The position numbers and the translations under genes were made by a program. From Parcubacteria group bacterium GW2011_GWA2_47_26 (GTDB lineage: Bacteria; Patescibacteriota; Patescibacteriia; GWA2-47-26): a stretch of 64,000 nt of DNA. Under the pieces are notes generated by a model. It saw only the letters and a program-made list of their open reading frames with translations. It was not told where the DNA came from and did no database searches. Below, one piece after another: positions 11,050-48,767 of this stretch. The stretch spans positions 40,714-104,713 of the forward strand of contig LCOG01000005.1 in NCBI GenBank assembly GCA_001001705.1, in the 5' to 3' direction. Numbering within the stretch: the first letter of the stretch is position 1; every line of letters starts with the position of its first letter.

Positions 11050-13095
11050 ATGTCTCGCTTTAGGTTATTCTATGCGCTGGTTTTAGTTTTAATAGGAGTG
11101 ATAGTGCCGCAAGCGAGCTTTGCTTTGCCTGAAGTGAAGACGACTTTTCCGCGTTTGGCCAATTATTTTTTACATTGGACTATTTCCGAGGAAGAGGCGC
11201 GGGAGCTTAAAAAATGGGATTTGCTTATTTTGGACATGGAAGTGCAGGAACGTAGTCGGCGCGAACTCCAGCTTTTACGGGAACTCAATCCAAACATTAT
11301 TCTGCTCGCGTACATAACATCTGTTGAGATTAGGAAAGACGCATTAACGCTTCCGGAGGGCGTTGCGCCTTTGCGCAGGAAGTTAGCAACGTCATATTTA
11401 AAACCAGAATGGTTTATTACCGATGTCGGAGGTTCACGTCGCTCGTTTTGGCCCGGAACTTGGATTGTCAATATTACTGATCGGGCGCCGCTTATAGAGG
11501 GGCGGCGCTGGCAAGATGTTTTACCGCAATTTGTGAGCAATGAAATTCTGGATACGGGTCTTTGGGACGGGATTTTTTATGATAATGGCTGGGAGGATCC
11601 TTCGCATCATACTGGAGCAGGCCTTGATTTAGATCGCGATGGTCAGGCGGAGTCGCGAGAGAGTGTTAATGCAGTTTGGCAAGAAGGGATGCAGAAGCTC
11701 CTTGAAAATACTTCTCGTCTTTTTGGCGATCGCGCGCTTATCATGATGAATGGAAATCTTGCCTATGCGTCGCAAGTGAATGGTCTTATGTTTGAGTATT
11801 TTCCCCGTCAAGGTTGGGCGCAGACCATGGCAAAGTATAAGACGTCAATCTCTCAAAATCATCCTCCAGCGCTGCCGGTGGTAAATACCATAGGCCGCAC
11901 GGGTAAGCCTGATGATTATTCCCAGTTTCGGTATGGACTTACCAGCACGTTTTTGGATGATGGATTTTATAGTTTTGATTCAGGACTGACTGATCACGGT
12001 CAGACTTGGTGGTATGATGAGTATGAGGCATTTTTAGGTGAGCCTCTAGGGGAGGCGAAAAAGAGGGACGTTTCTAATTTTGCGCGGCAAAATTTAGAAA
12101 CGTCTCCTTTTTCGGCCGGACTTTGGCGTCGAGATTTTGAAAAAGGTATTGCTTTTGTCAATTCGAGTACGACTACCCAGACTGTAGAGTTGCCTATAGA
12201 AATAGAGAAATTGCGCGGCAGACAGGATTCGGTGGTAAATGATGGTTTGATTACGCGGCGTTTGCAAATTGAGGCGCAGGACGGCTTGATAGTATTGCGG
12301 CCTTTGCAAACAATTGTGGGCGCGCCGTTTGAGAATGGAGTTTTTGCGCGGGTGTTTAACGCGGCGGGAGAAGTTGCGCGCGCGGGATTTTTTGCGCTGG
12401 ACCGTCGGGAGGAGAGCGGAGTGGTTATGGCGAGTATGGATTTAGATGGAGACGAAAGGGTAGAAAAGGTAAAGAGAGAGGAGGGGGGAATAGTAAAAAT
12501 CATTTTTGGCAGTGGTCAGCAAACTAGTTTTGCGCCATTTGGCGCAGGGGCGCGGAGCGAGGAGATTAGTTTGGCTTTAGGGGATGTTACGGGCGAAGGT
12601 GTAAAAGAGATTGTGGTTTCATATCGCGGGCAAGTCAGGATTTATCGGATTGATGGGACGCTTTTGGTGACGCCATTTTTTCCTTTTGGCTCCCGTTATC
12701 GGGGCGCTGTGAATGTGGCAGTAGGGGATTTGAATAGGGATGGGTTTTCGGAAATTGTGGTTGGCGCTGGTGCGGGCGGCGGGCCATTCGTGCGGATTTT
12801 TTCCGGAGAAGGACGGTTGCTCTCGGGCGGATTTTTTGCGTATGATCCGAGGTTTCGGGGCGGGGTGCGGGTGGCCGTGGGGGATGTTGATGATGACGGG
12901 CAGGCGGAAATTGTAACAGGGCCGGGTATTGGCGGCGGGCCGCAAATTCGGATTTTTAATAATAAGGGGCAGGCGGCTGGGCCGGGTTTTTTTGCCTTTG
13001 ACCAAAGCGCGAGAGGCGGAGTAATACCAATAGTAGCGGATGCAGATGGGGATGGAAGGAATGAAATTTTGGCAGTAACTAGAGAAGCAGAGTAG
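11050..13095 (+). CDS. Secreted protein: N-terminal putative glycoside-hydrolase-like (TIM-barrel, GHL-type) domain plus C-terminal FG-GAP/VCBS repeats
   Basis: Signal peptide MSRFRLFYALVLVLIGVIVPQASFA. LANYFLHWTISEEEARELKKWDLLILDMEV region. C-terminal repeats GDLNRDGFSEIVVGAGAGGGPFVRIF / GDVDDDGQAEIVTGPGIGGGPQIRIF. One in-frame family-B element. Confidence 0.6.
   Translation: MSRFRLFYALVLVLIGVIVPQASFALPEVKTTFPRLANYFLHWTISEEEARELKKWDLLILDMEVQERSRRELQLLRELNPNIILLAYITSVEIRKDALTLPEGVAPLRRKLATSYLKPEWFITDVGGSRRSFWPGTWIVNITDRAPLIEGRRWQDVLPQFVSNEILDTGLWDGIFYDNGWEDPSHHTGAGLDLDRDGQAESRESVNAVWQEGMQKLLENTSRLFGDRALIMMNGNLAYASQVNGLMFEYFPRQGWAQTMAKYKTSISQNHPPALPVVNTIGRTGKPDDYSQFRYGLTSTFLDDGFYSFDSGLTDHGQTWWYDEYEAFLGEPLGEAKKRDVSNFARQNLETSPFSAGLWRRDFEKGIAFVNSSTTTQTVELPIEIEKLRGRQDSVVNDGLITRRLQIEAQDGLIVLRPLQTIVGAPFENGVFARVFNAAGEVARAGFFALDRREESGVVMASMDLDGDERVEKVKREEGGIVKIIFGSGQQTSFAPFGAGARSEEISLALGDVTGEGVKEIVVSYRGQVRIYRIDGTLLVTPFFPFGSRYRGAVNVAVGDLNRDGFSEIVVGAGAGGGPFVRIFSGEGRLLSGGFFAYDPRFRGGVRVAVGDVDDDGQAEIVTGPGIGGGPQIRIFNNKGQAAGPGFFAFDQSARGGVIPIVADADGDGRNEILAVTREAE
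12056..12114. repeat. Family-B palindrome, in frame in CDS
   Basis: CGAAAAAGAGGGACGTTTCTAATTTTGCGCGGCAAAATTTAGAAACGTCTCCTTTTTCG encodes KKRDVSNFARQNLETSPFS. Confidence 0.9.
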
Positions 13096-13124
13096 GCAGA
13101 GTAAGCACTAAGCAGATTAAGCAT
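13086..13124. repeat. Family-C 9-mer array (AGCAGAGTA/AGCAGATTA units), left arm flanking the four-helix-bundle gene
   Basis: AGCAGAGTAGGCAGAGTAAGCACTAAGCAGATTAAGCA. It contains the stop codon of the upstream CDS. Confidence 0.8.
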
Positions 13125-13133
13125 TCTTGATGT

Positions 13134-13508
13134 ATGGCCAATATTAGAACATTCCATGATCTTGACGTGTGGCGGAAAGCACACGAGCTTGTATTATTGG
13201 TATATAAAATTACTAAAACATTTCCCAAAGAGGAGTTATATGTGTTGGTTGCACAAATCCGTCGTGCCGCTATATCCATTACCGCGAATATAGTAGAAGG
13301 ATTCCGAAGAAAAACACTTAAAGATAGCTTAAATTTTTATCGGATGGCAGATGCCTCATTAGAAGAACTTAAATATCATATTTTTCTTTCACATGACCTT
13401 GGGTATATTTCGGATAGTGAATATAATGTTATAGTTTCTCTATGCGAAGAAGTGGGAAAGTTGCTTACGCGATGGATTCAGAGTCAAGAAACGTATCTCA
13501 ATGCTTAA
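13134..13508 (+). CDS. Four-helix-bundle protein (23S rRNA intervening-sequence protein family)
   Basis: 124 aa. FHDLDVWRKAHELVLLVYKITKTFPKEELYVLVAQIRRAAISITANIVEGFRR...ASLEELKYHIFLS is characteristic of this family. Confidence 0.85.
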   Translation: MANIRTFHDLDVWRKAHELVLLVYKITKTFPKEELYVLVAQIRRAAISITANIVEGFRRKTLKDSLNFYRMADASLEELKYHIFLSHDLGYISDSEYNVIVSLCEEVGKLLTRWIQSQETYLNA

Positions 13509-13541
13509 TTTGCTTAATCTGCCTACTCTGCTTAATCTGCC
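13502..13541. repeat. Family-C 9-mer array, right arm (inverted relative to 13086-13124)
   Basis: TGCTTAATTTGCTTAATCTGCCTACTCTGCTTAATCTGCC. It overlaps the stop codon of the four-helix-bundle gene. Confidence 0.8.
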
Positions 13542-13547
13542 AAATTT

Positions 13548-14381
13548 ATGGAATTTATCTGTAAGCACGATCCGTCTGATCCAAACCACTTGATTTGCGA
13601 ATCAAAGCGGTCGCCGGTTTTTGAATGGCTGCGTGGGCGATGGCAACAGTTTTATTGTGCGGGTCCGAGTTGTCCAACGCATAAGGCTTACACGCATTTG
13701 GTTGTGGATATTTTTTTGGTAATTGCGGTTGCGGGATTGGTGGTGGCGAACCTGGTTTTTTTGTCAAGGGGGAGGGGTGGGGATAAAGTCGGCTCAAACA
13801 GTCCTCGCGCACAAACTGCGACTCTGGCCACTATCCGTGGGGGAGAAGAAGAGGTGGAAAAATCCCAGCCGAATCTTTTTAGTGGTGAAGAGAATAAAGA
13901 GGAAAGTCTACAGTATTCTGGACAATCGGAGTTATTTTTAGAAGGAGAGGCGTTGTATTTTTCAATGGAGGGCGAGCAATTGGGACGGGGGCCGTGGCCA
14001 TTGCAAGCGGGGCAGGAAACTAAAATCAAGGTGTTTTTGCGGGCGAATACTGGTAGAGATTTTGAAGGTGTGGTCGTAAGCGGGAAATTGGGGCCAAATG
14101 CGGCCTGGACGGGTTTTGCGCCGCAAGGTCGCGGGCTAGTTTATGAACCGGCAAGCCAGATAGTGCGCTGGCGAATTACTTGGTCAGATAGGCCTGGTTC
14201 TAGCACGAGGGCGGTGTTTGAAGTGGCGATTACCCCGGATTTTAGCCAAATTCAAGAGGGCCAGGTTTTAATTATGGAGGATTTGAAAATACGAGCGAAA
14301 AGTCTGGTTAGTGGCGAGAGTAAGACGGTACTTGCCCCAGATGTGATTTTGGACATGACAACTGGAAGTGTGTTAAAATAA
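13548..14381 (+). CDS. Membrane-anchored hypothetical protein (single TM plus beta-rich ectodomain)
   Basis: 277 aa. TM HLVVDIFLVIAVAGLVVANLVFL. I recognise no diagnostic motif. It lies directly upstream of the giant surface protein gene. Confidence 0.5.
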   Translation: MEFICKHDPSDPNHLICESKRSPVFEWLRGRWQQFYCAGPSCPTHKAYTHLVVDIFLVIAVAGLVVANLVFLSRGRGGDKVGSNSPRAQTATLATIRGGEEEVEKSQPNLFSGEENKEESLQYSGQSELFLEGEALYFSMEGEQLGRGPWPLQAGQETKIKVFLRANTGRDFEGVVVSGKLGPNAAWTGFAPQGRGLVYEPASQIVRWRITWSDRPGSSTRAVFEVAITPDFSQIQEGQVLIMEDLKIRAKSLVSGESKTVLAPDVILDMTTGSVLK

Positions 14382-17400: not shown

Positions 17401-20400
17401 GGAGCATGACTGGATTGACTCCGGGCGAATATGCTTGCAATATCCCGCCAAGCCCTACGCTATTAGCTGATCTGGGCGGTTCGCCTCCGTTCCAGCCCAT
17501 TACCTTATCCAGCGCGAATCGGACTGGGGTAGATATCAGGTATAAGAATATGGCGACCGCGACAGACTCCAAAACCTTGACCGTGAATATCTCGGGCGGT
17601 TCGGCCAGTACAGAGGTGGATGTGTTCTGTTCGGCGGGCGGATTTGACTTTGAGTTTTCTGCGCCCTCCATGAAAGCCGTAACTTTGGACGGCACTGGCG
17701 CCGGATCAACCACATTGAGGCTTCAGCAGAATAAGAACTATGATTGCGGCATGGGTCCGCACATGGCTTTTGAACAGTTTGGCACTGGCGGTCCGCCACC
17801 CCTGCCCACCTTTACCTTTATGCCGCCCAAGCCGCAAATAGTAAACATGGATACGGACAAGACCATTATTTTTGCGGTGCAAGCCTCCAATCGCAGTATT
17901 ACTGGAACTGTGGTAGACGGTTCCGCGACCGGAATTGCTAATGTGTTTGTGCATGCTGAACCGGTGGGGTGTTTTGACGCCACTTCGGGCGAGTTCAAAG
18001 ATTGCCATGGCGCGTTTGCCCAGACTAATTCTAACGGAACATTTAGCTTGGCGGTGGTAGACGGCACTTATGAAGTTGGCGCGGACGGTCCCGGACTTCC
18101 GCCTTCCACGCGCGAGATTGCCAATGTGAAAGGTGCGAACGTCACTGGCGTTACCTTAAAGATGGTGAAGTCCTCAACCACTATTTCCGGCGCGATTCAA
18201 GACGAATCCGGCAATGGCATTCAATACGCGCAGGTGAGCGCGGAAAAGCGCACCATTACCACTGGCTCGGATGCTTGCGACTTTGCCAACTCCCGACCCT
18301 CTGGCGGATTTGCTGATAGTCCAACTGATAGTAGCGGAAACTTCACTCTCTATGTCTCCAACGGCACTTGGTGCCTTCGCGCGTTCTCTCCGTCTTACGG
18401 CGAAGTTGGCACTAAAACTGTCACCATGTCCGGTACATCGCTTACCGGTCAGAACATCGCGGCTACCGCAGCAAACTTTGGAACTGTAACCGGCACCGTA
18501 ACTAAAGCCGGATCCAATGTTTCCGGCGCGTTTGTCAACTGCTATGGTTCTGCTGGCGGCAATGGCGGGCAAACCGGTGGGAACGGCGTTTATTCCATAA
18601 GAGTCAAACTGGCCTCCAGCGGTTCAACCACCATGACTTGCGACGGATTCGCGCCCGGAATAGGTCCGCTTGGCCGCGCTACTGTAACCTTTGCGCAAGG
18701 TGATACTTCTAAGACCCAGAACTTCACCATCGCGGGAAATGCCGCGACCATTACGGTTACCGCTACGGGCTTGACAGAAGGATTCTGTGACGCGCGCGAT
18801 TCCACTGGTTTGGGTTCTGGCGCTCCGATTCAAAGCGGCACCGCTACGATTAGCGCGCCGGCTGGTACCTATACGGTGCGTTGTGGTTCTCCTCGAACCG
18901 GTCCTCTTACTCTGACTTCATCTTCTGCTACGCTTACTGCCGGCGGCACCGCGGCCATTACCGCAACAGTGCCAACTCTGCGCACTGTTACCGGCCGCAT
19001 TACGGATGGCACGAGCAACCTGGAAGGAGCGACCGCGACCTTTACCGACACAACAACTAAAGCATCATTCAAGGTAGTCAGCGGCAACCAGTCCGGGTCA
19101 AACAACAACCTGTCCGGTTCCAATGTTCCGGAAGGTTCATATAATGTCAAAGTATCCAAGAAAGGATTTGAACCGGCCATTACCACTGCTTCTGTTTCCG
19201 GCGGGAACTTAACGCTTTCCTCCGCGATCGCGATGACCCAAGCAACCGGCACCGCCGGAGATACCGTAACCTTCCCGGTGCAAACCGACAGCGCGGCCTA
19301 TACCGGGACCGCGAAAGTCATCTGTTCCAAAGACAGCAAAACCGTAGCGGTGGAAATTGATTCCTCAACCGGCAATGCTTCCGCTGATCTTGCCAATGGT
19401 ATCTGGAGCTGTAAAGCGATTGGCGACAACGGCAAACAGTCCACCGCGACAAATGTAACGGTTTCGGGCGGCACGCTTTCTGGAGCGGCCCCGACGTTCG
19501 CAATGGATACTTCAATCTCGGGGTACACCCAGAAGAGCGAATCCGGTACCTTTGGACTTTCTTCCGGCGGATTGATGAAGTTCAATAATCTGGCGGTCGG
19601 GAGCACTGCTCCGGAGATTAATGTGCCGACCAACGCCTTTTCCACCACGGATTCTTCAACCGGGAAAGTGGAGATGAAGACCGACCCGACAGTGGTTTCC
19701 ATTGACCCCGGAGCGGATCAAAATATGGTGGGTTCGCACGGTTATGACATTACCCCCAAAGACGCCAATGGCAACAAAGTATCCGACACCAACAGTCCGG
19801 TAACCATTACCATGCCGTATACTGACGCGGATGTTACTGCGGCCGGAGTTGACGAATCCAAGCTGACGCTGGCTTCCTATAATACCTCCAGCCAGACATG
19901 GGAGAGCGTGTCCACCACGGTGGACACCACTAACAACTTGCTGATCGCCTCGGTAAGCCACTTCTCGTCCTTTGGCATTTTGGGCGGTGTGGTTACAGCC
20001 GCGACAGTGGGTTCCAGCACTTCAGATTTGACCCCGCCGGCGGCGCCGACCAATGTGCAACTCACGAGCAATGGTTCAAGCGTAACTTTAACCTGGACTG
20101 ACCCGTCTGACGTGGATCTTTATCGCGTGGAAGTCTTGCGCAATGACGGGGGCAGTACACCCGTAACCGGCGATGTGCGAGCTATAGTAGAGAAAGGCGC
20201 CCAGCGCTATGTGGATAGTAGTGTACAGGCTGGTCAGACTTATAAGTATATTATTAAAGTGCGCGATACGGCTTTGAACCAGCGTTTGACTGATGAGTAT
20301 ACAGTGGCTGTTCAGGCGCCAGTTGCGGCTGCACCGGGCGGCGCCGCTCCGGCTGCGGCACCGGCAGCCGCTCCGGCGGCACCAGCGCCAGTAGCCCCAG

Positions 20401-21017
20401 CTCCTGCGGCGGCGCCAGCTCCGGCTCCCGCTCCAGCCGCCGCACCAGTAGCTATACTTATCCACGATCCTTCACGAGTTGAGGAACTAATCTCTAGGAT
20501 CGGAGTATCCCGCAATCAATCTGAAGAAGCGCGGTATAATGCTCTGGTTCGCTCGGACGCTCTAGCCTTTAGAGTGGGTCTCACCGAAGAACAGCGCACA
20601 ACGCTCACCAACTTCGTAGCTTATGGCGTCTCGGCCAAGACCAAGAATTTAGGGTCTGGGGAGCGGCGAGCCGTACTGCGGGATTATCTGGAAACTGTGG
20701 GACGGGCTAACGTAAGTTGGGAAGATGTGGAGCGCATGACGCAAGGGATAAAGCCCGTAAGCCGCAACCTTGAAAAGGAACGCGCCCAAGTTGCTGCGGC
20801 TCTGCGTATATTTACGAGACTTTATGTCCATCGCCCGAACTTCCAGGATGCGGAAGAAGATCTAGCTTGGAATACCTTAATGTACCGCATTCGCTTTACC
20901 CGCGATTTAGCTAAAGAGCGCGAGGGTATTCAAGAGTTTAGAGCAGTATTTGGACGCATTCCGCGGTCAACCATGGATTGGGCAGTGGTAAGATTGCTCG
21001 GATACGTGAAGTCGTAG
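14457..21017 (+). CDS. Giant cell-surface protein (2186 aa): Ig-like/SbsA-like and CarboxypepD_reg-like beta domains, FN3, Pro-Ala linker, conserved C-terminal helical domain (candidate S-layer/adhesin)
   Basis: N-terminal anchor ITFFVVLTTILWAFGVPLGVFL. Repeated ITGTVVDGSATGIANVFVHAEP / ISGAIQDESGNGIQYAQVSA / VTGRITDGTSNLEGATATF modules. FN3-like PPAAPTNVQLTSNGSSVTLTWTDPSDVDLYRVEVLRNDGG. PA-rich tract. Confidence 0.8.
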   Translation: MQNPFTGFYLNFKKTIFRSREKARSGITFFVVLTTILWAFGVPLGVFLPTPVQQAQAAVTLTTDLVDFSASNVKPDPDGIGAGFQWGMTASSGETLTAVTVSLTAGAGFTNSDIAQCFILADTNQAVVDGTEQTDQFWLFDCSIGLNTLTLSATPPENRMNGAGNTYALPSSMTGRGTYELVFSLVLSGSATHGDQVTVSAVAGTTALALSSGNVTNAVYSRVLTADSQGPTVTGAGGPPNSQEFVPPDAVVDRVFNEALLGLMVGPSSVSLKRCTGMEGAGEAAVRAAAACTTLDSTNQCSGVTLSDSNTRISCAHSLLQTNSWYELRIANVTDAGGNALAAAHVNRFKTSGFFGGAGGTNTTPPRVNSTYPQGGDMFFKNANLSVRFPIGPEGDMSFNSDGGLAGSVNAGDLDAFVGGNPAVSLKQVVNFVPTTEVCTSISACVLQWEATPRVLIINPASDLVEGADYELCVRGSPNSLAVKNQVNQNMVGDYCTRFRVDSGATASDSTAPTLRSATLGNPTFPSNGATGVSIYTGELQAFFSEPLNSATVTLTNASLYIDTNSNGVPNDGETVLDSSALNLTYDSAGRAARFSPRTPLIANTRYCFRLTNGLTDPADIVFTASTNQCFTTAASESALVAPKLLFADADNYKIVAHFDQAVNSTQATTAANYTFECPVGVTVPLTGKTFVYRPPEVEIQGLGLQNGQTCRLTVSTNVTNFAGTAMDTTGGNNVANFVVQSSTTTGGFLGTTVADSTNFFGGMGGATAGTFWATPTRCEPRQRSANKATSFECEFPAPGAMLVGSTILLSFPSGFTLSTSAGNARITPASQSQWNSDLNSQESGTVTATASTDTVAKTITLTTAGAAVTSGSMLHFELDQITTPVTAAENQRVTMVVKDASGVKIGQTINPAPFSIQQGGSLSISGRVCKGSTVGGSCGVGDTAIASVKVFCNQMGGFMVGTAGSAFMGFQEATTDASGDWSMTGLTPGEYACNIPPSPTLLADLGGSPPFQPITLSSANRTGVDIRYKNMATATDSKTLTVNISGGSASTEVDVFCSAGGFDFEFSAPSMKAVTLDGTGAGSTTLRLQQNKNYDCGMGPHMAFEQFGTGGPPPLPTFTFMPPKPQIVNMDTDKTIIFAVQASNRSITGTVVDGSATGIANVFVHAEPVGCFDATSGEFKDCHGAFAQTNSNGTFSLAVVDGTYEVGADGPGLPPSTREIANVKGANVTGVTLKMVKSSTTISGAIQDESGNGIQYAQVSAEKRTITTGSDACDFANSRPSGGFADSPTDSSGNFTLYVSNGTWCLRAFSPSYGEVGTKTVTMSGTSLTGQNIAATAANFGTVTGTVTKAGSNVSGAFVNCYGSAGGNGGQTGGNGVYSIRVKLASSGSTTMTCDGFAPGIGPLGRATVTFAQGDTSKTQNFTIAGNAATITVTATGLTEGFCDARDSTGLGSGAPIQSGTATISAPAGTYTVRCGSPRTGPLTLTSSSATLTAGGTAAITATVPTLRTVTGRITDGTSNLEGATATFTDTTTKASFKVVSGNQSGSNNNLSGSNVPEGSYNVKVSKKGFEPAITTASVSGGNLTLSSAIAMTQATGTAGDTVTFPVQTDSAAYTGTAKVICSKDSKTVAVEIDSSTGNASADLANGIWSCKAIGDNGKQSTATNVTVSGGTLSGAAPTFAMDTSISGYTQKSESGTFGLSSGGLMKFNNLAVGSTAPEINVPTNAFSTTDSSTGKVEMKTDPTVVSIDPGADQNMVGSHGYDITPKDANGNKVSDTNSPVTITMPYTDADVTAAGVDESKLTLASYNTSSQTWESVSTTVDTTNNLLIASVSHFSSFGILGGVVTAATVGSSTSDLTPPAAPTNVQLTSNGSSVTLTWTDPSDVDLYRVEVLRNDGGSTPVTGDVRAIVEKGAQRYVDSSVQAGQTYKYIIKVRDTALNQRLTDEYTVAVQAPVAAAPGGAAPAAAPAAAPAAPAPVAPAPAAAPAPAPAPAAAPVAILIHDPSRVEELISRIGVSRNQSEEARYNALVRSDALAFRVGLTEEQRTTLTNFVAYGVSAKTKNLGSGERRAVLRDYLETVGRANVSWEDVERMTQGIKPVSRNLEKERAQVAAALRIFTRLYVHRPNFQDAEEDLAWNTLMYRIRFTRDLAKEREGIQEFRAVFGRIPRSTMDWAVVRLLGYVKS
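20313..20450 (+). repeat. Low-complexity Pro/Ala-rich linker-coding tract
   Basis: Encodes QAPVAAAPGGAAPAAAPAAAPAAPAPVAPAPAAAPAPAPAPAAAPVA. GC-rich, and it generates spurious antisense ORFs. Confidence 0.9.
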
Positions 21018-21047: not shown

Positions 21048-21075
21048 CAGTCCCGCGGTTACGGGACTGTTTTTG
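21048..21075 (+). terminator. Intrinsic terminator of the giant gene
   Basis: CAGTCCCG-CGGTTA-CGGGACTG followed by TTTTT. Confidence 0.75.
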
Positions 21076-21076
21076 A

Positions 21077-21138
21077 GTGGAAAAAGAGAGCACTTCTAAA
21101 TTTTGCAAAGCAAAATTAGAGGCGTTCTCTTTTTCCAC
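21077..21138. repeat. Family-B palindrome (intergenic variant)
   Basis: GTGGAAAAAGAGAGCACTTCTAAATTTTGCAAAGCAAAATTAGAGGCGTTCTCTTTTTCCAC, near-identical to 591-648. Confidence 0.9.
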
Positions 21139-21394
21139 TCAATGTCGCCGGATTGGGGCTGAAGAGTTTGTTGCGAATTTTCCAGCGGTCCACATATTGA
21201 CCAACACCGTGATGTTCAAGTTTGTTTTTTATTTTGGGCCGTTTTTGAGACCACTCTAAAAGGCTTTCAAAAGCAATACGATAACGACCCCGGATTACCA
21301 CATAGCGCAGATCGCCGCTTTTTAAGGCGCGGCGGATGGTTTTTTGCTCTATGCCAAAGAATTTGGCGGCTTCGGAGACGGAAAGGCGGATCAT
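21116..21394 (-). CDS. Helix-turn-helix DNA-binding protein (excisionase/MerR-like HTH_17)
   Basis: 92 aa. LSVSEAAKFFGIEQKTIRRALKSGDLRYVVIRGRYRIAFESLLEW. The 3' end reads into the family-B repeat. Confidence 0.65.
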   Translation of the reverse strand: MIRLSVSEAAKFFGIEQKTIRRALKSGDLRYVVIRGRYRIAFESLLEWSQKRPKIKNKLEHHGVGQYVDRWKIRNKLFSPNPATLSGKRERL

Positions 21395-21410: not shown

Positions 21411-21474
21411 AAGCAGAGTAAGCAGATTAGGCAGATTAAGCAATTGTTTAGTACATACTCTGCTTAATCTGCTG
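21411..21474. repeat. Family-C 9-mer hairpin ('empty', no gene in loop)
   Basis: AAGCAGAGTAAGCAGATTAGGCAGATTAAGCA-ATTGTTTAGTACA-TACTCTGCTTAATCTGCTGAC. Confidence 0.8.
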
Positions 21475-27125: not shown

Positions 27126-27178
27126 AGAATGGGTTTGATATTATGTGGCTAGGCCACAAAGCTTTGTGGCCTAAATAC

Positions 27179-27287: not shown

Positions 27288-27887
27288 TTGCGGTTTTATA
27301 CCTCGCTTTTTGTTTTCAATGATGAGAATTATCGCGGAGTACTTGGGCTCGATGTAAATGCAGTATTACATCAGTTTTGTGACCAAGTCACAAGTATAGG
27401 TGACTTGGTCACAAAACGCAAACCACTTGTCAATATAGTAAGTTTTTGCTTAATGCCTAACCATTTTCATTTTCTACTTGAACAAATTGCTGAACAAGGG
27501 GTTCCTCGTTTTATGCACCGTATTGCGTTAGGGTATGCTGAATATTTTAATAAGAAAAATGATCGCACTGGCCGTTTATTCGAGGGGCCATTTAAAGCAG
27601 TGCTTGTTCAGCGCGACGCTCAACTAGAACATTTGCCACGCTATATTCACTTGAATGCTTTAGATCTTATTACTGATTTAAATTGGGGGGAGGGGAAGAT
27701 TGCCGATTGGGCTCGCGCGGAAAAATTTTTAGAAGAATATTCCTGGTCCAGTCATGGGATGTATCTCAATAAACCGCAGTTGTTGCCGGTTATTAAAAAA
27801 GCAATAGTAGAACAAATATTTGATACACCAGAAAAATACATCAATTTTTTAAAACAGTGGCTAGGCCACTGCGAAATTGTGGCCTAG
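27288..27887 (+). CDS. REP-associated tyrosine transposase (RAYT, IS200/IS605-like Y1 HUH family), apparently 5'-truncated
   Basis: HUH motif CLMPNHFHFLLEQ and Tyr motif LPRYIHLNALD. The only available start is TTG, with an in-frame TGA at 27255-27257. The usual N-terminal ~30 aa are missing. Confidence 0.7.
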   Translation: MRFYTSLFVFNDENYRGVLGLDVNAVLHQFCDQVTSIGDLVTKRKPLVNIVSFCLMPNHFHFLLEQIAEQGVPRFMHRIALGYAEYFNKKNDRTGRLFEGPFKAVLVQRDAQLEHLPRYIHLNALDLITDLNWGEGKIADWARAEKFLEEYSWSSHGMYLNKPQLLPVIKKAIVEQIFDTPEKYINFLKQWLGHCEIVA

Positions 27888-27915
27888 CCACATAATCGTG
27901 GTATAATATAAAACT

Positions 27916-31213: not shown

Positions 31214-32524
31214 ATGAAGATTGCCTATTTAACCTGCGTTTATCCTCCATATCCGGGCGGGATTGGGGTGGCGGCGGCGGGGATGGCCAAGGAGATGGCC
31301 TCGCGCCGCGGATACGCCGTGGAAGTGTTTACGCCGCGGTATAGAAGGGAATTAGGAATAAGGAATCAGGAATCAGGGGTTGAGATGCATTATCTTAAGC
31401 CGTTGCTGTCATATGGCAAGGCTGCGATTTTGCCGCAGCTGCTTTGGCGCTTGCGCAGATTTGATATTGTGCATGTGTATTATCCGTTTTTTGGCGGCGC
31501 TGAAGTTGCGGTTTTGGCGCGTAAGTTGTGGAAATTCAAATTGATTTTACATCATGAGATGGATGTGGTTGGAGAGGGTGAAAAGAGGGACGTTCCCCTT
31601 TTTGCGTCAAAAAGGGGAACGTCCCTCTTTTTCACATGGCATACTCGCAAGATCTTGCCGTGGATTATAAAAAATACGGATTGTGTTTGCGTTTTGTCCG
31701 ATGACTATTTTATGAATTCTGATTTTGGGCGTTTGTATAAAAAAATGGGAGAGAGATTTCCAACTTGGCGGGTTGTGCCCAATGGGGTAGATGTAGAGTT
31801 ATTCAGGCCTACAAATTTTTGTCATCCTGAGCCCACGCACCAGAGCGAAAGCTTGGTGCGGGGTAGACTCCGCGAAGGATCTCGAGATTCTCCGTCCGCC
31901 GTGGGCGGACGAAGAATGACAGAACTGCCGACCATTTTATTAGTGGCAGGATTGGATCGAGCGCATTATTTTAAAGGCGTCCATGTATTGATTGAGGCTT
32001 TGCGCATTCTCAAAAAACGAGGAGTAAATTTTATGTGTAAGATAATTGGCGACGGAGATATGCGCAAAGTATATGAAGAGCAGGCAAAACAAGTCGGCCT
32101 GAAAAATAGGGACGTTTCTAATTTTGCCGCACAAAATTTAGAAACGTCCCCTTTTTCTATAGTATTTGTTGGACTCGTACCGCATGATGAGCTGCCGGTT
32201 CATTATCGGAATGCTACGGTACTAGTTGTTCCTTCCACTGGACGTATTGAAAGTTTCAGTATTGTTGCGGCAGAAGCCCAGGCTTGCGGCTTGCCAGCGA
32301 TTGTTTCGGATTTGCCCGGAGTGCGGGTTACAATTGAGGACGGAGTGACTGGATTGAAAGTTAAGCCGGGCGATCCGGAGGACTTGGCTAATCAACTGGA
32401 GATACTTTTAATGCAGAAAGATTTAACACGTAAAATGGGTGAGGCGGGGCGAAAAAGGGCAGAGGAGTTTTATAGTTGGACCGGGATTGGAAATAAAATG
32501 GAGGAAATTTATAAGAAGGTATGA
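31214..32524 (+). CDS. Glycosyltransferase family 4
   Basis: ESFSIVAAEAQACGLPAIVSDLPGVRVTIEDGVTGLKV. Carries four in-frame repeat elements (E, B-variant, A, B). Confidence 0.85.
   Translation: MKIAYLTCVYPPYPGGIGVAAAGMAKEMASRRGYAVEVFTPRYRRELGIRNQESGVEMHYLKPLLSYGKAAILPQLLWRLRRFDIVHVYYPFFGGAEVAVLARKLWKFKLILHHEMDVVGEGEKRDVPLFASKRGTSLFFTWHTRKILPWIIKNTDCVCVLSDDYFMNSDFGRLYKKMGERFPTWRVVPNGVDVELFRPTNFCHPEPTHQSESLVRGRLREGSRDSPSAVGGRRMTELPTILLVAGLDRAHYFKGVHVLIEALRILKKRGVNFMCKIIGDGDMRKVYEEQAKQVGLKNRDVSNFAAQNLETSPFSIVFVGLVPHDELPVHYRNATVLVVPSTGRIESFSIVAAEAQACGLPAIVSDLPGVRVTIEDGVTGLKVKPGDPEDLANQLEILLMQKDLTRKMGEAGRKRAEEFYSWTGIGNKMEEIYKKV
31347..31379. repeat. Family-E heptamer tandem (GGAATYA units), in frame in GT4
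   Basis: GGGAATTAGGAATAAGGAATCAGGAATCAGGGG encodes ELGIRNQESG. Confidence 0.7.
31578..31635. repeat. Family-B variant palindrome, in frame in GT4
   Basis: GTGAAAAGAGGGACGTTCCCCTTTTTGCGTCAAAAAGGGGAACGTCCCTCTTTTTCAC encodes GEKRDVPLFASKRGTSLFF. Confidence 0.85.
31821..31920. repeat. Family-A element, in frame in GT4
   Basis: Encodes CHPEPTHQSESLVRGRLREGSRDSPSAVGGRRMT. Confidence 0.85.
32101..32157. repeat. Family-B palindrome, in frame in GT4 (57 nt = 19 codons)
   Basis: GAAAAATAGGGACGTTTCTAATTTTGCCGCACAAAATTTAGAAACGTCCCCTTTTTC encodes KNRDVSNFAAQNLETSPFS. Confidence 0.9.
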
Positions 32525-40407: not shown

Positions 40408-41451
40408 ATGAGACTCTTGGTTTGCGGCGGGGCTGGGTTTATCGGCTCCAATTTTATCAAATATATTTTAGAAAGATATCCTGATTACAGGGTTGTTAAT
40501 TATGATAAATTGACATATGCCGGGAATTTGGAGAATTTGCAGGATATTGTCTCCCTACGGGAGATCCCCCGCGGGGGGAAAAATAATTCGCGGTACACTT
40601 TTGTGCAGGGCGATATTGGCGATCTAGATAAGCTGAACCAAGTCATTGCTGACCATAAAATTACGCATGCTATTTCTTTTGCCGCGGAGACTCATGTGGA
40701 TCGGTCTATTCATGGCGGATGCAAAGATTTTGTTTTGACCAACACACTGGGCGTGCAAATGCTTTTGGACGCTGTACGGTTTAATAAATTAGAAAAATTC
40801 ATAAATGTTTCCACGGATGAGGTGTATGGAGCTCTAGGGCTTCACGAAGACAGAAAGTTTACTGAAAGTACGCCAGTCTGGCCTAATATGCCTTATGCCG
40901 CGGCCAAGGCTGGAGGGGATTTGATGTGCAATGCCTATTTTGTTACTCATAAGACGCCGGTGATTGTTACGCATTGTTCCAATAATTACGGCCCGTATCA
41001 ATTTCCAGAAAAACTCATACCTTTTTTTATCTTTCGTTTACTGAATAATCAAAAAGTTCCAGTTTATGGGGACGGCCTTTATGTGCGCGATTGGATTCAG
41101 GTGAGGGATCACGCCAGCGCGCTGGATTTACTTTTGCACAAAGGTGTCGCGGGTGAAATTTACAATATCGGCGTGGATAACGAACGGAGTAATTTGGAAG
41201 TGACTAAAATGATTTTGCAAATTATGGGCAAAGGCGAGGATATGATTGAATATGTGACGGATCGGCCGGGGCATGATCGCCGTTATGCCATTGATGCTTC
41301 GAAAATTCAACAGCTGGGCTGGCAGCCGGTTTATACGCGCGATAAATTTGAGCAAGGTCTGCGGGAGACAGTGGAATGGTATTTAAACAATCGCGCATGG
41401 GTGGAGAAATTGCAAAAAAGACAAGCGGAGTTGAATCCGCATATTAAATAG
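40408..41451 (+). CDS. rfbB: dTDP-glucose 4,6-dehydratase
   Basis: LVCGGAGFIGSNFIKYIL, VNYDKLTYAGNLENL, STDEVYG and YAAAKAGGD. Small hairpin-coded insert SLREIPRGG at ~40549-40580. Confidence 0.9.
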   Translation: MRLLVCGGAGFIGSNFIKYILERYPDYRVVNYDKLTYAGNLENLQDIVSLREIPRGGKNNSRYTFVQGDIGDLDKLNQVIADHKITHAISFAAETHVDRSIHGGCKDFVLTNTLGVQMLLDAVRFNKLEKFINVSTDEVYGALGLHEDRKFTESTPVWPNMPYAAAKAGGDLMCNAYFVTHKTPVIVTHCSNNYGPYQFPEKLIPFFIFRLLNNQKVPVYGDGLYVRDWIQVRDHASALDLLLHKGVAGEIYNIGVDNERSNLEVTKMILQIMGKGEDMIEYVTDRPGHDRRYAIDASKIQQLGWQPVYTRDKFEQGLRETVEWYLNNRAWVEKLQKRQAELNPHIK

Positions 41452-41527
41452 CAGAGTAAGCAGATTAAGCACTAGGCAGAGTAAGCAAGTGCTTAGTACT
41501 TACTCTGCCTACTCTGCATAATCTGCT
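41450..41527. repeat. Family-C 9-mer hairpin ('empty')
   Basis: AGCAGAGTAAGCAGATTAAGCACTAGGCAGAGTAAGCA-AGTGCTTAGTAC-TTACTCTGCCTACTCTGCATAATCTGCT, between rfbB and the cupin gene. Confidence 0.8.
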
Positions 41528-41535
41528 ATCATTGT

Positions 41536-41952
41536 ATGTTTAAAGAATTTCAAATTTTTACCATCAAGAAAATAGAGACGCCGAAGTTTGTTATGAGTCC
41601 GGTGGAGCTGAAAGAATATGTTGATTTTGAAGTCAAGAGAGCGTATTTCATTACTAAACCAGTTGCGCAGACCGGAGCGCATTGTCATAAGATAGAGGAA
41701 GAGTTTTTTATTTTGGTGCAGGGGAGTTGCACGGCGGTGATCGATCGCGGGCAGGGTTTGGAAGAGATTGCTATGAATGGACCGACTAGCGCTATGTATG
41801 TGCCGGCTTTCGTTTGGCATCATTTTAAAGATTTTTCGCCGGATGCAATTTTGCTGGCTTTGAGTTCCACCAATTATAGTCCGGACAGGAGCGATTATGT
41901 TGAGGATTATGAGGAGTTTAAGAAAGCGAGCCCCTATTATGCAGCAGATTAA
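41536..41952 (+). CDS. WxcM/FdtA-like cupin (dTDP-4-keto-6-deoxy-sugar 3,4-ketoisomerase family)
   Basis: 138 aa. FEVKRAYFITKPVAQTGAHCHKIEEEFFILVQGSCTAVIDRG resembles FdtA/QdtA-type cupins. The stop codon lies in a family-C repeat. Confidence 0.6.
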   Translation: MFKEFQIFTIKKIETPKFVMSPVELKEYVDFEVKRAYFITKPVAQTGAHCHKIEEEFFILVQGSCTAVIDRGQGLEEIAMNGPTSAMYVPAFVWHHFKDFSPDAILLALSSTNYSPDRSDYVEDYEEFKKASPYYAAD

Positions 41953-42012
41953 GCAGATTAGGCAGAGTAAGCAGCTGGTTTTGCTTAATCTGCTTAGTGC
42001 TTAATCTGCTTA
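41941..42012. repeat. Family-C 9-mer hairpin ('empty')
   Basis: GCAGCAGATTAAGCAGATTAGGCAGAGTAAGCAGC-TGGTTT-TGCTTAATCTGCTTAGTGCTTAATCTGCTTA. Confidence 0.8.
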
Positions 42013-46638: not shown

Positions 46639-47499
46639 ATGTACGACATCGTAACAGTGACAGTCAATTACAAGATGAAAGACAAGGTCTTAGCGATGTT
46701 GCGGTCGCTTTTTCGCGATACGGAAAATAGGGACATTTCTAATTTTGCTGCGCAAAATTTAGAGACGTCCCTATTTCCTCGGGTGCAGTCGGTGGTTGTT
46801 GATAATGATTCCCGCGATAGCATTAAGGATGCACTAGTAAAAGAGTTTAGTCAGCGGATTATTTTTATTGATGCTGGTGCGAATATCGGATTTGGGCGCG
46901 GTAATAATTTGGCGCTTAAAAAATTTGAGGCAAAATATTATTTCATTGCCAACCCAGATTTAGTATTCATGGAAAATCAGCCGGACACAGTGGCGCGGTT
47001 GTATAAATTTATGGAAGACAATCCTAAAATTGGCATTGTTGCGCCGCGTTTGGTTTTGAAAAGTGGGGTTACCCAACCATCCTGCATGCGCTTCCCGCGC
47101 TTTTTTGATCAGCCGATTTACCGTCTTGGTCTTCATAAAAAATACGAGTGGGCGCGCCGGAGAGTGGAGTGGCTGCTTATGAAAGATTTTGACCACACAA
47201 AGAGCCAGCCAATTGATTGGGCGACTGGTGCGGCGTTTTTTGTGCGCGGAGATATGTTAAAGAAGGTCGGGTTTTTTGATGAGAGATACTTTATGTATTT
47301 TGAAGATTGCGATTTATGCCGGACATTCTGGTCGCGCGGCTGGCCAGTCTACTATAAAGGCGATATCGTAATCCAACACGGTCACGAGCGCGCCTCGGCA
47401 AAAGTGCCGGGGTTGAAATCAATACTTTTAAATCCATTGACGCGCATACATTTAAAGAGTTTGGTGAAGTATGCATGGAAGTGGAGAGGGAGGAATTAA
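46639..47499 (+). CDS. Glycosyltransferase family 2
   Basis: IVTVTVNYKMKDK...VVVDNDSRDS...NIGFGRGNNLAL. One in-frame family-B element. Confidence 0.85.
   Translation: MYDIVTVTVNYKMKDKVLAMLRSLFRDTENRDISNFAAQNLETSLFPRVQSVVVDNDSRDSIKDALVKEFSQRIIFIDAGANIGFGRGNNLALKKFEAKYYFIANPDLVFMENQPDTVARLYKFMEDNPKIGIVAPRLVLKSGVTQPSCMRFPRFFDQPIYRLGLHKKYEWARRRVEWLLMKDFDHTKSQPIDWATGAAFFVRGDMLKKVGFFDERYFMYFEDCDLCRTFWSRGWPVYYKGDIVIQHGHERASAKVPGLKSILLNPLTRIHLKSLVKYAWKWRGRN
46722..46778. repeat. Family-B palindrome, in frame in GT2
   Basis: GGAAAATAGGGACATTTCTAATTTTGCTGCGCAAAATTTAGAGACGTCCCTATTTCC encodes ENRDISNFAAQNLETSLFP. Confidence 0.9.
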
Positions 47500-47500
47500 T

Positions 47501-48646
47501 ATGCAACCGAAGGTTGGTATTATACTGATAAACTACAAAGATTACGCTAAACGGTTTTTGGCGGATTGCCGCGATAGTTTGCGATTGATTGATTATCCGA
47601 AAGATAAGTACGTCGTATATATTGTGGACAATGCGACGTCGCCTGAAACGCGGGCATATTTGCAGGAGATATATCCTGAAGCAGTGGTAATTCCGAATTT
47701 AGAAAATTCCGGGTGGGGAGGGGGGAATAATTTGGGTATTGAACAATCATTCAAGGACGGTTGCGAGGATGTGGTCTTGGCGAACATGGATGTGATTGTG
47801 CATAAGGATTGGCTAAAGGAGTTGGTCAGCGCGGCGTATAGTGATAGTGGCCAAGCCACAACGGAAAGTGGCTTGGCCACAAATCCGAGCGATTCTAAAA
47901 TCGGCATCGCGCAGTCAAAGCTTTTGCTTTGGCCAGTTGGCTCTGATGGAGTGCAGAGAATAAATTCACTTGGCAATGAGATTCATTTTTTGGGGTTTGG
48001 GTATTGCCGGGGGTATGGGGAAGAAAATAGGGACGTTTCTAATTTTGTTACGCAAAGTTTAGAAACGTCCCATTTTCCAGATATTCCTTACGCGTCGGGG
48101 GCGTCAATGTATGTGAAGGGCGAAGTTTTCAGAAAAATTGGACTTTGCAATCCGGCATTTTTCATGTACCACGATGATTTGGAAATATGCTTGAAGGCCA
48201 AGTGCGCTGGTTATCGAGTAGTACTGGCTCCCGCGTCAGTCATGTGGCACAAGTACGAATTTGGCAGATCAGTGCGCCAGATTTATTATATGGAACGCAA
48301 TAGATTGATCACGGTGCTGGAATTTTATAAAATTTCCACTCTGATTTTACTAGCTCCGATGTTTTCCGTAATGGAGCTGGGTTTGCTAGGTAGCTCGCTT
48401 GCGGGCAGATATGATAAAGCCAAGCTGCGCAGTTGGGCGTACTTTTGGCATTTTGATAATTGGAAAAAAATTTTTCAGGAACGGAGACGGATTCAAAGAC
48501 TGCGTACAATAAAAGACAGTGAATTAATGCGAGACTTTACTGGAAAAATTCTGTTTCAGGAAATTGCCAATCCTGTACTTCGCTATTTTGTTAATCCTGT
48601 TTTTAATGCTTACTGGCAAGTTGCGAAAAGGTTGATGTGGTGGTAG
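47501..48646 (+). CDS. Glycosyltransferase family 2
   Basis: GGAGGAATTAAT-ATG. VGIILINYKDYAKRF...VVYIVDNATSPET...NSGWGGGNNLGI. One REP hairpin and one family-B element in frame. Confidence 0.85.
   Translation: MQPKVGIILINYKDYAKRFLADCRDSLRLIDYPKDKYVVYIVDNATSPETRAYLQEIYPEAVVIPNLENSGWGGGNNLGIEQSFKDGCEDVVLANMDVIVHKDWLKELVSAAYSDSGQATTESGLATNPSDSKIGIAQSKLLLWPVGSDGVQRINSLGNEIHFLGFGYCRGYGEENRDVSNFVTQSLETSHFPDIPYASGASMYVKGEVFRKIGLCNPAFFMYHDDLEICLKAKCAGYRVVLAPASVMWHKYEFGRSVRQIYYMERNRLITVLEFYKISTLILLAPMFSVMELGLLGSSLAGRYDKAKLRSWAYFWHFDNWKKIFQERRRIQRLRTIKDSELMRDFTGKILFQEIANPVLRYFVNPVFNAYWQVAKRLMWW
47847..47880. repeat. REP-type hairpin (RAYT family F), in frame in GT2
   Basis: GTGGCCAAGCCAC-AACGGAAA-GTGGCTTGGCCAC encodes SGQATTESGLAT. 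Confidence 0.8.
48023..48078. repeat. Family-B palindrome, in frame in GT2
   Basis: GAAAATAGGGACGTTTCTAATTTTGTTACGCAAAGTTTAGAAACGTCCCATTTTCC encodes ENRDVSNFVTQSLETSHFP. Confidence 0.9.
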
Positions 48647-48650
48647 AGTT

Positions 48651-48767
48651 TAGCAAGTAAGCAGAGTAAGCAGAGTAAGCAGAGTAAGCAGAGTAAGCAG
48701 ATTAAGCAGATTAAGTACTAAGCAAATTGCCTAATCTGCCTAATCTGTCTATTGCTTAATTTGCTTA
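48651..48767. repeat. Family-C 9-mer hairpin, longest copy (AGCAGAGTA x4, AGCAGATTA x2, then the inverted arm)
   Basis: TAGCAAGTAAGCAGAGTAAGCAGAGTAAGCAGAGTAAGCAGAGTAAGCAGATTAAGCAGATTAAGTACTAAGCAAATTGCCTAATCTGCCTAATCTGTCTATTGCTTAATTTGCTTA. It fills the whole intergenic spacer up to the next ATG. Confidence 0.85.

Follow-up and report, generated by a model that had tools for sequence, protein, structure and literature searches.

A four-helix-bundle gene between inverted unit arrays at an operon junction of a Parcubacteria genome, probably one copy of a widespread class of small cassettes

We analysed a 64,000-nt stretch of DNA (contig LCOG01000005.1, positions 40,714 to 104,713; hereafter the window) from Parcubacteria group bacterium GW2011_GWA2_47_26, a groundwater bacterium of the candidate phyla radiation (CPR), in which a gene for a four-helix-bundle protein lies between two inverted arrays of short units. 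Overall, the results favor the interpretation that window positions 13086-13541 are one copy of a widespread class of ~450-nt cassettes, probably selfish elements that resemble the intervening sequences (IVSs) of rRNA genes and that are accompanied by gene-less 'solo' hairpins resembling the miniature transposable elements with inverted repeats known as MITEs. The cassette consists of the following parts:

13134-13508, plus strand: four-helix-bundle gene, 124 aa, PF05635 / TIGR02436, Avd-like.
13086-13124 (or 13085-13125), plus strand: left arm, ~5 units (AGCAGAGTA, GGCAGAGTA, AGCAC[TA], AGCAGATTA, AGCA).
13500-13541, plus strand: right arm, an inverted array (AATGCTTAA TTTGCTTAA TCTGCCTAC TCTGCTTAA TCTGCC).

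The cassette extends over ~13086-13541 (456 nt), the limits already marked in a preliminary description made from the DNA letters alone, and the gene and its inverted arrays stand where that description had placed them. The arm units are 9 nt long and of the TAAGCAGAK type (AGCAGAGTA / AGCAGATTA), with one unit of 7 nt, and the two arms exhibit 96% complementarity over 23 nt as well as further pairing registers. An RNA fold of 13075-13555 (481 nt) is closed by both arms (z = -4.6), so that the arms do pair in silico. Also confirmed are the two stop codons that were said to lie within the arms, with the TAG of the upstream GHL15/FG-GAP gene (13093-13095) falling inside the left arm and the TAA of the four-helix-bundle gene itself (13506-13508) inside the right arm, which ends 6 nt before the ATG of a downstream gene coding for a 277-aa protein. 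This protein is 100% identical to one of Parcubacteria group bacterium GW2011_GWA2_47_26. The GC content of the gene is 36% and that of the whole cassette 37%, versus 48.7% for the window, which places the cassette at the 0.2 percentile of 456-nt windows. A promoter/terminator scan revealed no sigma-70-like promoter upstream of the gene, which fits expression by read-through from the host operon. No Rfam family reached threshold in the window, and the cassette is flanked by protein-coding genes, not by rRNA.

The 124-aa open reading frame (ORF) matches PF05635 (23S_rRNA_IVP) with an E-value of 2.7e-37 and 127.7 bits versus a cut-off of 33.8, and TIGR02436 ('four helix bundle protein') with 117 bits versus a cut-off of 24. 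PF05635/bAvd is the only domain found in the protein, which contains no transposase of known fold. Its nearest solved relative is XCC0516 from Xanthomonas campestris (PDB 2GSC, E 5e-18), an entry composed of five chains, with 2RLD as a further solved relative. The core motif reported for this family is of the GxxRxxxSxxxNxxE type (Zhang et al. 2013, PMC3936711). This motif is present, with Q41, R44, N52, E55 and G56 among the 22 residues that are invariant over 30 homologues, and with S48 nearly so. A profile search of all six frames detected no second four-helix-bundle gene in the window.

We compared the junction that holds the cassette with the same junction in relatives. Four other lineages share the gene order GT4 - GT4 - GHL15/FG-GAP - 277-aa homologue - giant surface protein. 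Between the GHL15/FG-GAP gene and the 277-aa homologue their junction is empty (L187 and L188) or holds a solo hairpin (L189 and L192), whereas it is full in the window:

L187, 277-aa homologue 50% identical: junction of 2 nt, empty, with ..AITK and its stop at the ATG.
L188, 277-aa homologue 43% identical: junction of 12 nt, empty.
L189 (Uhrbacteria), 277-aa homologue 38% identical: junction of 86 nt, made up of a solo hairpin.
L192, 277-aa homologue 36% identical: junction of 87 nt, with a hairpin of another unit type, TACAAAT.

The L189 hairpin reads AGTAAATCA AGCGAGGCA AGCAAGACA AGTAAATCA ... TGATTTACT TGCTTTACC TGATTTACT, and its units are those of a four-helix-bundle cassette (L038) located on the same contig. 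A second difference concerns the end of the upstream protein, which is ..TREAE in the window. Of the four relatives, three have ..TREIL or ..TREVL at this place and L187 has ..AITK. The last two codons and stop of the GHL15/FG-GAP gene in the window, GCA GAG TAG, are left-arm sequence. These junctions show that the cassette was inserted after the GHL15/FG-GAP gene and before the 277-aa gene, with its arm taking the place of the final two codons and stop of the former. A scan of metagenomes with RmlD for orthologous solo sites returned only relatives of <=48% identity. We also observed a 244-aa Y1_Tnp gene in the next junction downstream in L192 (4782-5516; Uhrbacteria RIFCSPLOWO2_01_FULL_47_24), between a 233-aa gene and the giant surface protein gene, showing that small elements of several kinds settle in these same operon junctions.

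A census of arm units in the window found the motif AGCAGAKTA 20 times versus 0.76 expected, a count reached by none of 100 shuffles. The unit copies beyond the cassette all belong to four compact hairpins:

21411-21474: solo hairpin in the divergent spacer HTH_17 / sigma-70; -27.3 kcal/mol, z = -5.4.
41450-41527: solo hairpin filling the junction from the RmlB stop to the FdtA start; -36.6 kcal/mol, z = -5.0.
41941-42012: solo hairpin filling the FdtA to RmlD junction; -38.1 kcal/mol, z = -5.6.
48651-48767: solo hairpin in the GT2 / NTP-transferase junction; -40.7 kcal/mol, z = -4.5.

All four of these gene-less hairpins had been pointed out before and they prove to be real, with z between -4.5 and -5.6, so that solo hairpins outnumber cassettes 4 to 1 in the window. 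Their reported confinement to tight gene junctions stands for the three co-directional ones (RmlB/FdtA, FdtA/RmlD and GT2/NTP-transferase), which sit in a sugar-nucleotide/glycosyltransferase cluster, but not for the copy at 21411-21474, which occupies the divergent spacer between an HTH_17 gene (21116-21394, minus strand) and a sigma-70 gene on the plus strand. The hairpin at 48651-48767 is the largest, with seven units in its left arm. The TAA stop of FdtA lies within the first unit of the hairpin at 41941-42012, and FdtA is bracketed by two complete hairpins, not by half-arms.

To see how far this design extends we used 80 loci of ~12 kb each with homologues at 50-66% identity, taken from one-genome-per-species contigs and with genes called as simple ORFs. 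These loci are the nearest relatives of one clade, to which the Xanthomonas clade was added, and so represent only part of the family; the single XCC0516 clade has 7,765 relatives at E <= 1e-10. The sampled taxa include Magasanik-, Uhr-, Buchanan-, Falkow-, Doudna- and Nomurabacteria, Omnitrophota, Planctomycetota, Elusimicrobia, Margulisbacteria, WOR-1 and others. For each gene the 120 nt upstream were aligned by Smith-Waterman with the reverse complement of the 120 nt downstream, with 507 ORFs from the same loci as controls. Repeat-rich arms align easily, a bias that is addressed by these ORF controls and by controls with shuffled assignments. Duplex-fold energies followed the same trend but gave inflated values, and the Smith-Waterman scores were used instead.

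Inverted repeats in the flanks exceeded the 95th percentile of the controls in 71 of the 77 homologous genes (92%) and the 99th percentile in 57% of them, with a median score of 38 versus 16 for the control ORFs. The gene-in-a-stem-loop design proposed in the preliminary description therefore exists outside rRNA and is family-wide, and the contrary case that it had raised, of paralogues devoid of arms and hairpins distributed independently of them, is not what we find. The arms nearly always lie <=20 nt from the start codon and <=10 nt from the stop codon of the enclosed gene, with a period of 7 (60 arms), 8 (22 arms) or 9 nt (45 arms) and a mode of 4-5 units per arm versus 2-3 in control windows. 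A TAAG core is usual and makes up 8.5% of all arm 4-mers, for example in TAAGTTG, TAAGGAT, TAAGGGG, TAAGTGAG and TAAGCAGAG, while some clades have units of a CAG type. The upstream neighbor's stop codon falls a median of -2.5 nt from the arm, that is, inside it, and the downstream start codon follows the other arm at a median of 6 nt. Both neighbors are co-directional at 52 of 66 loci versus ~59% expected from the 77% per adjacent pair (z ~3.3). GC content of the gene is below that of the rest of the locus in 74 of 74 loci, with the two values correlated (r = 0.8). Scanning IMG/VR with the family alignment yielded one weak match, indicating that the clade is not phage-borne.

Arm similarity was then related to the genes. 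Similarity of arm 7-mers rises with protein identity (Spearman 0.22, reached by none of 300 label permutations), with the mean Jaccard index increasing from 0.02 at 40-60% identity to 0.075 at 60-70% and 0.16 above 70%. Arms are unrelated between paralogues that one genome carries within a few kilobases of each other (L031, L028, L079, L026); for example, the three genes of L031 carry arms of GTCAC, TAAGTCG and CGTATCT type. This indicates that the host is not what determines arm sequence, and these comparisons show that arm sequence is inherited with the gene lineage rather than with the host. Solo hairpins at other loci match the local cassette. Specifically, 9-mers from the arms of the local cassette identify 28 solos in 22 of 67 other loci (664 kb), versus 1.4 with arms taken from another locus at random, a ~20-fold excess. 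The only cargo found between separated half-arms in the fetched loci is four-helix-bundle genes, one of them truncated (L025). With regard to assembly, L004, L007, L010 and L094-L096 are metagenome contigs of the same locus, several of which start within or just before the cassette, and 7 of 16 contigs carrying the window's four-helix-bundle gene are <2 kb. So many breaks at or near the cassette fit a fragmentation of short-read assemblies by the repeat arms.

The arms are also constrained. Cassettes whose genes differ with a pS of 0.84-0.96, that is, with synonymous sites saturated, have arms that are 85-97% identical over 20-35 nt (for example 31/35 between the window and L011 and 32/33 between L040 and L057), and dN/dS is 0.05-0.13 in related pairs where dS is measurable. 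By this comparison the arms are conserved far beyond neutral expectation. Arm mismatches comprise 95 sense-strand wobble-compatible transitions, 98 antisense ones and 214 transversions. This distribution has no G-U wobble bias toward the sense strand, so that selection for RNA pairing as such is not demonstrated. The conserved feature is the unit sequence rather than the pairing.

The same arrangement occurs around XCC0516, whose genomic sites were reached by a search with the sequence from the PDB alignment. Its orthologues occupy the accB-accC junction of X. campestris, X. arboricola, Stenotrophomonas and Dyella. The left flank reads GGGAATC GGGAGTG GAGAATC GGGAATC and the right flank is the inverted array (4+4 heptamers), giving arms with 28/30 matches, and the last right-arm unit abuts the accC ATG. 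Genes of the XCC0516 type have a GC content 7-10 points under that of their locus. Xanthomonadales arms (L196 2430-2457 / 2845-2872; L202; L204) are mismatched at exactly every seventh position, which yields 6-bp helices parted by 1x1 loops. The heptamer array itself encodes the N-terminal residues of XCC0516, whose GTG start is at L196 2441. These arms are directly identical to the published GGGAATC arrays of Xanthomonas, which Rehm et al. 2015 (PMC4692102) described as 'quadruplex-forming', with ~186 sites in X. campestris including 70 convergent inverted pairs, their function being 'still to be elucidated'. That paper also reports GGGGAYT arrays in Nostoc. Heptamer arrays of TAACTGA are known from Beggiatoaceae, Cyanobacteria and Bacteroidetes (MacGregor 2015, PMC4679880). 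Neither PMC4692102 nor PMC4679880 draws a connection between its arrays and four-helix-bundle genes (xcc0516, 'four helix' and 'S23' appear in neither text).

We propose the following explanation for a cassette with this design. The protein, probably pentameric, would recognise the units of its own arms, each subunit taking one unit much as in a toroidal repeat reader, and the cognate pair of protein and arms would maintain the module and would once have spread it. The solo hairpins, unless they are footprints left by excision, would derive from it as non-autonomous or decayed copies. Once the operon is transcribed, the two arms would zip into a stem that loops out the gene and joins the stop and start codons of its neighbors. 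This stem would be a candidate RNase III substrate as in ORF-bearing rRNA IVSs, which themselves would be the same element landed in rRNA. The suggestion of a small mobile cassette, also made in the preliminary description, is supported by the junction polymorphism, the low GC content, the arms that go with the gene and the solos that match the local cassette.

The individual steps differ in strength. For us it is evenly balanced whether the protein reads the units repeated in its arms, a proposition suggested by the pentameric ring in 2GSC together with homology to Avd, the RNA-binding protein of diversity-generating retroelements (DGRs). Toroidal proteins of the TRAP type read tandem short RNA motifs and offer a functional analogy. 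A homo-oligomeric ring could likewise face evenly spaced motifs, given arms of 4-5 units and the 2GSC pentamer, although the TRAP fold is unrelated to the four-helix bundle. The Coxiella IVS is 428-444 nt long with a 28-bp stem, and RNase III cleaves it in mid-stem in vitro (PMC4990558). By analogy the cassette stem could loop out its gene in the transcript and be cut in the same way, which we regard as conceivable though somewhat short of probable.

The closest known system is the ORF-bearing IVS of 23S/16S rRNA genes (Leptospira, Coxiella, CPR; PMC4990558, PMC11270868), which has in common with the cassette the PF05635 'S23p' protein, a similar size, terminal inverted repeats that form a long stem round the ORF, a GC content under that of the host and a sporadic distribution. 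However, the cassette sits at a protein-coding junction and not in an rRNA helix, and so fails the defining rRNA location. In addition, its arms are arrays of 7-9-nt units with gene-less copies alongside, while RNase III excision has been shown for the IVS. Pairs of an insertion sequence (IS) and its MITEs are similar in having terminal inverted repeats, low GC content, insertions that are polymorphic between genomes, and derivatives that lack the gene but keep the ends. They differ in that the cassette has no recognisable transposase or visible target-site duplication and has ends made of tandem unit arrays. The published heptamer arrays (GGGAATC and GGGGAYT, PMC4692102; TAACTGA, PMC4679880) share intergenic tandem 7-nt units that often occur as convergent inverted pairs and abut start codons.

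Several observations weigh against a mobile, selfish cassette. There is no known catalytic (transposase or recombinase) domain in the PF05635 family to our knowledge, and the binding of protein to repeats is a putative one. Comparison of the window with the empty sites, whose orthologues are only 43-50% identical, brings no target-site duplication to light. Near-identical strains exhibit no presence/absence variation, as exact-protein matches of the four-helix-bundle protein, its 277-aa neighbor and FdtA all occur with identical arms or hairpins, a result that is silent on recent mobility. Among the fetched loci no member is embedded in rRNA, judged by conserved rRNA motifs and, on four loci, by Rfam. 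The absence of wobble bias in the arm mismatches counts on the same side. Finally, the accB-accC copy, kept across Xanthomonadales families with conserved arms, looks like a stable and possibly useful resident rather than an active parasite, and this conservation of site and arms indicates that cassettes can be long-term stable residents.

That last observation leads to a different explanation, in which the protein is a trans-acting RNA-binding regulator of a host regulon, the arrays at junctions are its operators, its own arrays are autoregulatory and nothing is mobile today. This overlaps with our proposal in that the protein reads the repeats. It is in keeping with the retention of the accB-accC cassette and its arms in Xanthomonas, Stenotrophomonas and Dyella, with the report that X. 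campestris and X. axonopodis share the location of 83-90% of their GGGAATC arrays (PMC4692102), with arrays that abut start codons, such as the TAACTGA arrays of Beggiatoaceae that end 1 nt upstream of them (PMC4679880), and with the strong constraint on the arms. However, a host regulon accounts poorly for genes that are lower in GC than the host locus in 74 of 74 cases, for one junction that is empty, solo-bearing or full among relatives with differing unit types, for divergent paralogues that lie side by side each with private arms, or for relatives inside rRNA genes (PMC11270868) and cas operons (PMC3936711). We consider it unlikely.

The hairpins could instead be the primary mobile elements, of a kind similar to repetitive extragenic palindromes (REPs) or MITEs and moved by, for example, a Y1 transposase, with the gene as a passenger or homing into their loops. 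The 4 to 1 excess of solos in the window would agree with this, as would the Y1_Tnp gene in the window (27288-27887) and the one beside the syntenic junction of L192. REPtrons, in which a REP-associated tyrosine transposase (RAYT) accompanies REPs or bacterial interspersed mosaic elements (BIMEs), are in fact similar to the cassette in that a small gene is bracketed by inverted cognate repeats, that there are many gene-less copies in spacers and that the repeat type is lineage-specific. Yet the cassette protein is a four-helix bundle without the HUH/Tyr transposase fold, and the cassette arms pair across the gene whereas REPs each form their own small hairpin. The real Y1_Tnp of the window has other, unrelated palindromes of its own (TGTGGCCTAGCCACA), and as it is bracketed by these it is an unlikely mobiliser. 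Moreover, no cargo except the four-helix-bundle gene was seen between half-arms, arms are present on 92% of these genes and each paralogue has its own arm type, which together make a hairpin-first origin improbable.

A third possibility, that these junction modules act at the RNA level alone (as RNase III sites, insulators or terminators), were selected for pairing and contain the gene only incidentally, is in our view very improbable. The stems are strong, and the 28-bp Coxiella stem cut by RNase III in vitro provides an analogy (PMC4990558), but no T-run follows any of the four solos or the cassette, the scan finds no terminator at the arms, mismatches are mostly transversions with no G-U wobble bias, Xanthomonas arms are mismatched every seventh position and it is the unit sequence, not merely pairing, that is conserved. 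The role as junction terminators or insulators put forward in the preliminary description is thus not borne out, given the lack of both T-runs and a wobble signature.

Lastly, the gene is almost certainly not the Avd accessory protein of a DGR, as its matches to PF22296 bAvd (49 bits) and NF033474 (55.6 bits) are weak, the latter being below the cut-off of 80, there is no reverse transcriptase among the window ORFs and the flanks are ordinary glycan-biosynthesis genes; we rejected this role on the NF033474 score and the missing reverse transcriptase. The likeness to Avd (bAvd, PDB 4DWL) consists of a homologous pentameric four-helix-bundle fold, while the cassette has no reverse transcriptase or template/variable repeats and scores below the equivalog cut-off. 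Avd acts on structured RNA together with reverse transcriptase (PMC10053308, PMC6182149).

Returning to the proposal of a cassette with its own cognate arms, a broader version, which we put forward tentatively and hold to be doubtful, is that PF05635 pentamers are sequence-specific readers of 7-9-nt units and form, with their private arrays, a phylum-spanning class of self-propagating modules that spread without a canonical transposase. This would explain the ORFs of rRNA IVSs, the excess of heptamers (GGGAATC and possibly TAACTGA and GGGGAYT) and the origin of Avd. Papers on non-rRNA four-helix-bundle genes in repeat-array hairpins, or papers tying heptamer arrays to them, were not found in full-text literature, a coverage that lies outside most subscription journals, and a class of cassettes with unit-array arms and solos outside rRNA is apparently undescribed. 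The 'four helix bundle protein' is among the commonest unexplained small-gene annotations in bacterial genomes. If the cognate pair is true, the role of IVS ORFs, the abundance of heptamers and nonamers in Xanthomonas, cyanobacteria and CPR, and the origin of Avd would come together in one testable system, for which X. campestris is a ready model with the XCC0516 crystal structure, the accB-accC site and ~186 published GGGAATC arrays. There is a consequence for annotation as well, as assemblies are broken and gene ends altered by cassettes and solo hairpins; here the upstream gene owes its final two codons and its stop to the arm.

In two surveys of CRISPR systems (PMC3936711, PMC10910872) 23S_rRNA_IVP figures as 'CRISPR-associated', its genes being located between cmr3 and cmr2 and next to cas4/cas6. 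Given the habit of the cassettes of filling junctions, these cas-operon genes may be cassette insertions rather than functional partners.

The window contains additional repeat families and a transposase gene:

591-648, 12054-12117, 21073-21142, 31581-31631, 32103-32156, 46725-46776 and 48022-48076: second palindrome family, ~55-65 nt, e.g. AAAATAGGGACGTTTCTAATTTT..AAATTTAGAAACGTCCCCTTTTT.
6260-6281/7031-7052 and 9672-9708/10326-10362: third repeat family (CTTCACTGCGTTCAGGATGACG / TGTCATTCTGAAGGAGCGCAGCGACTGAAGAATCCCG), in inverted pairs with 617-749 nt between them, located in or around the Wzy_C and GT4 genes.
27288-27887: Y1_Tnp gene (IS200/RAYT-like, PF01797), with perfect 20-nt inverted repeats at 27140-27159 / 27877-27896, each with the palindrome TGTGGCCTAGCCACA.

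Several copies of the second palindrome family fall in long ORFs, which continue through them in frame. One of these, at 12054-12117 in the 681-aa GHL15/FG-GAP gene, contributes the peptide ..AKKRDVSNFARQNLETSPFS.., recalling the in-frame insertions of Rickettsia palindromic elements. The layout of the Y1_Tnp gene is REPtron-like, and a palindrome pair related to its repeats is present at 47846-47881 inside a GT2 ORF. A tRNA-Thr(GGT) called by ARAGORN at 20337-20413 (minus strand) is in an Ala/Pro-rich low-complexity repeat of a 2186-aa ORF and is probably a false positive, as Rfam finds no tRNA there. Finally, a HEPN-domain gene (2215-2613, minus strand) overlaps a 108-aa ORF (1919-2245, minus strand), and the two may constitute a HEPN/MNT toxin-antitoxin pair.

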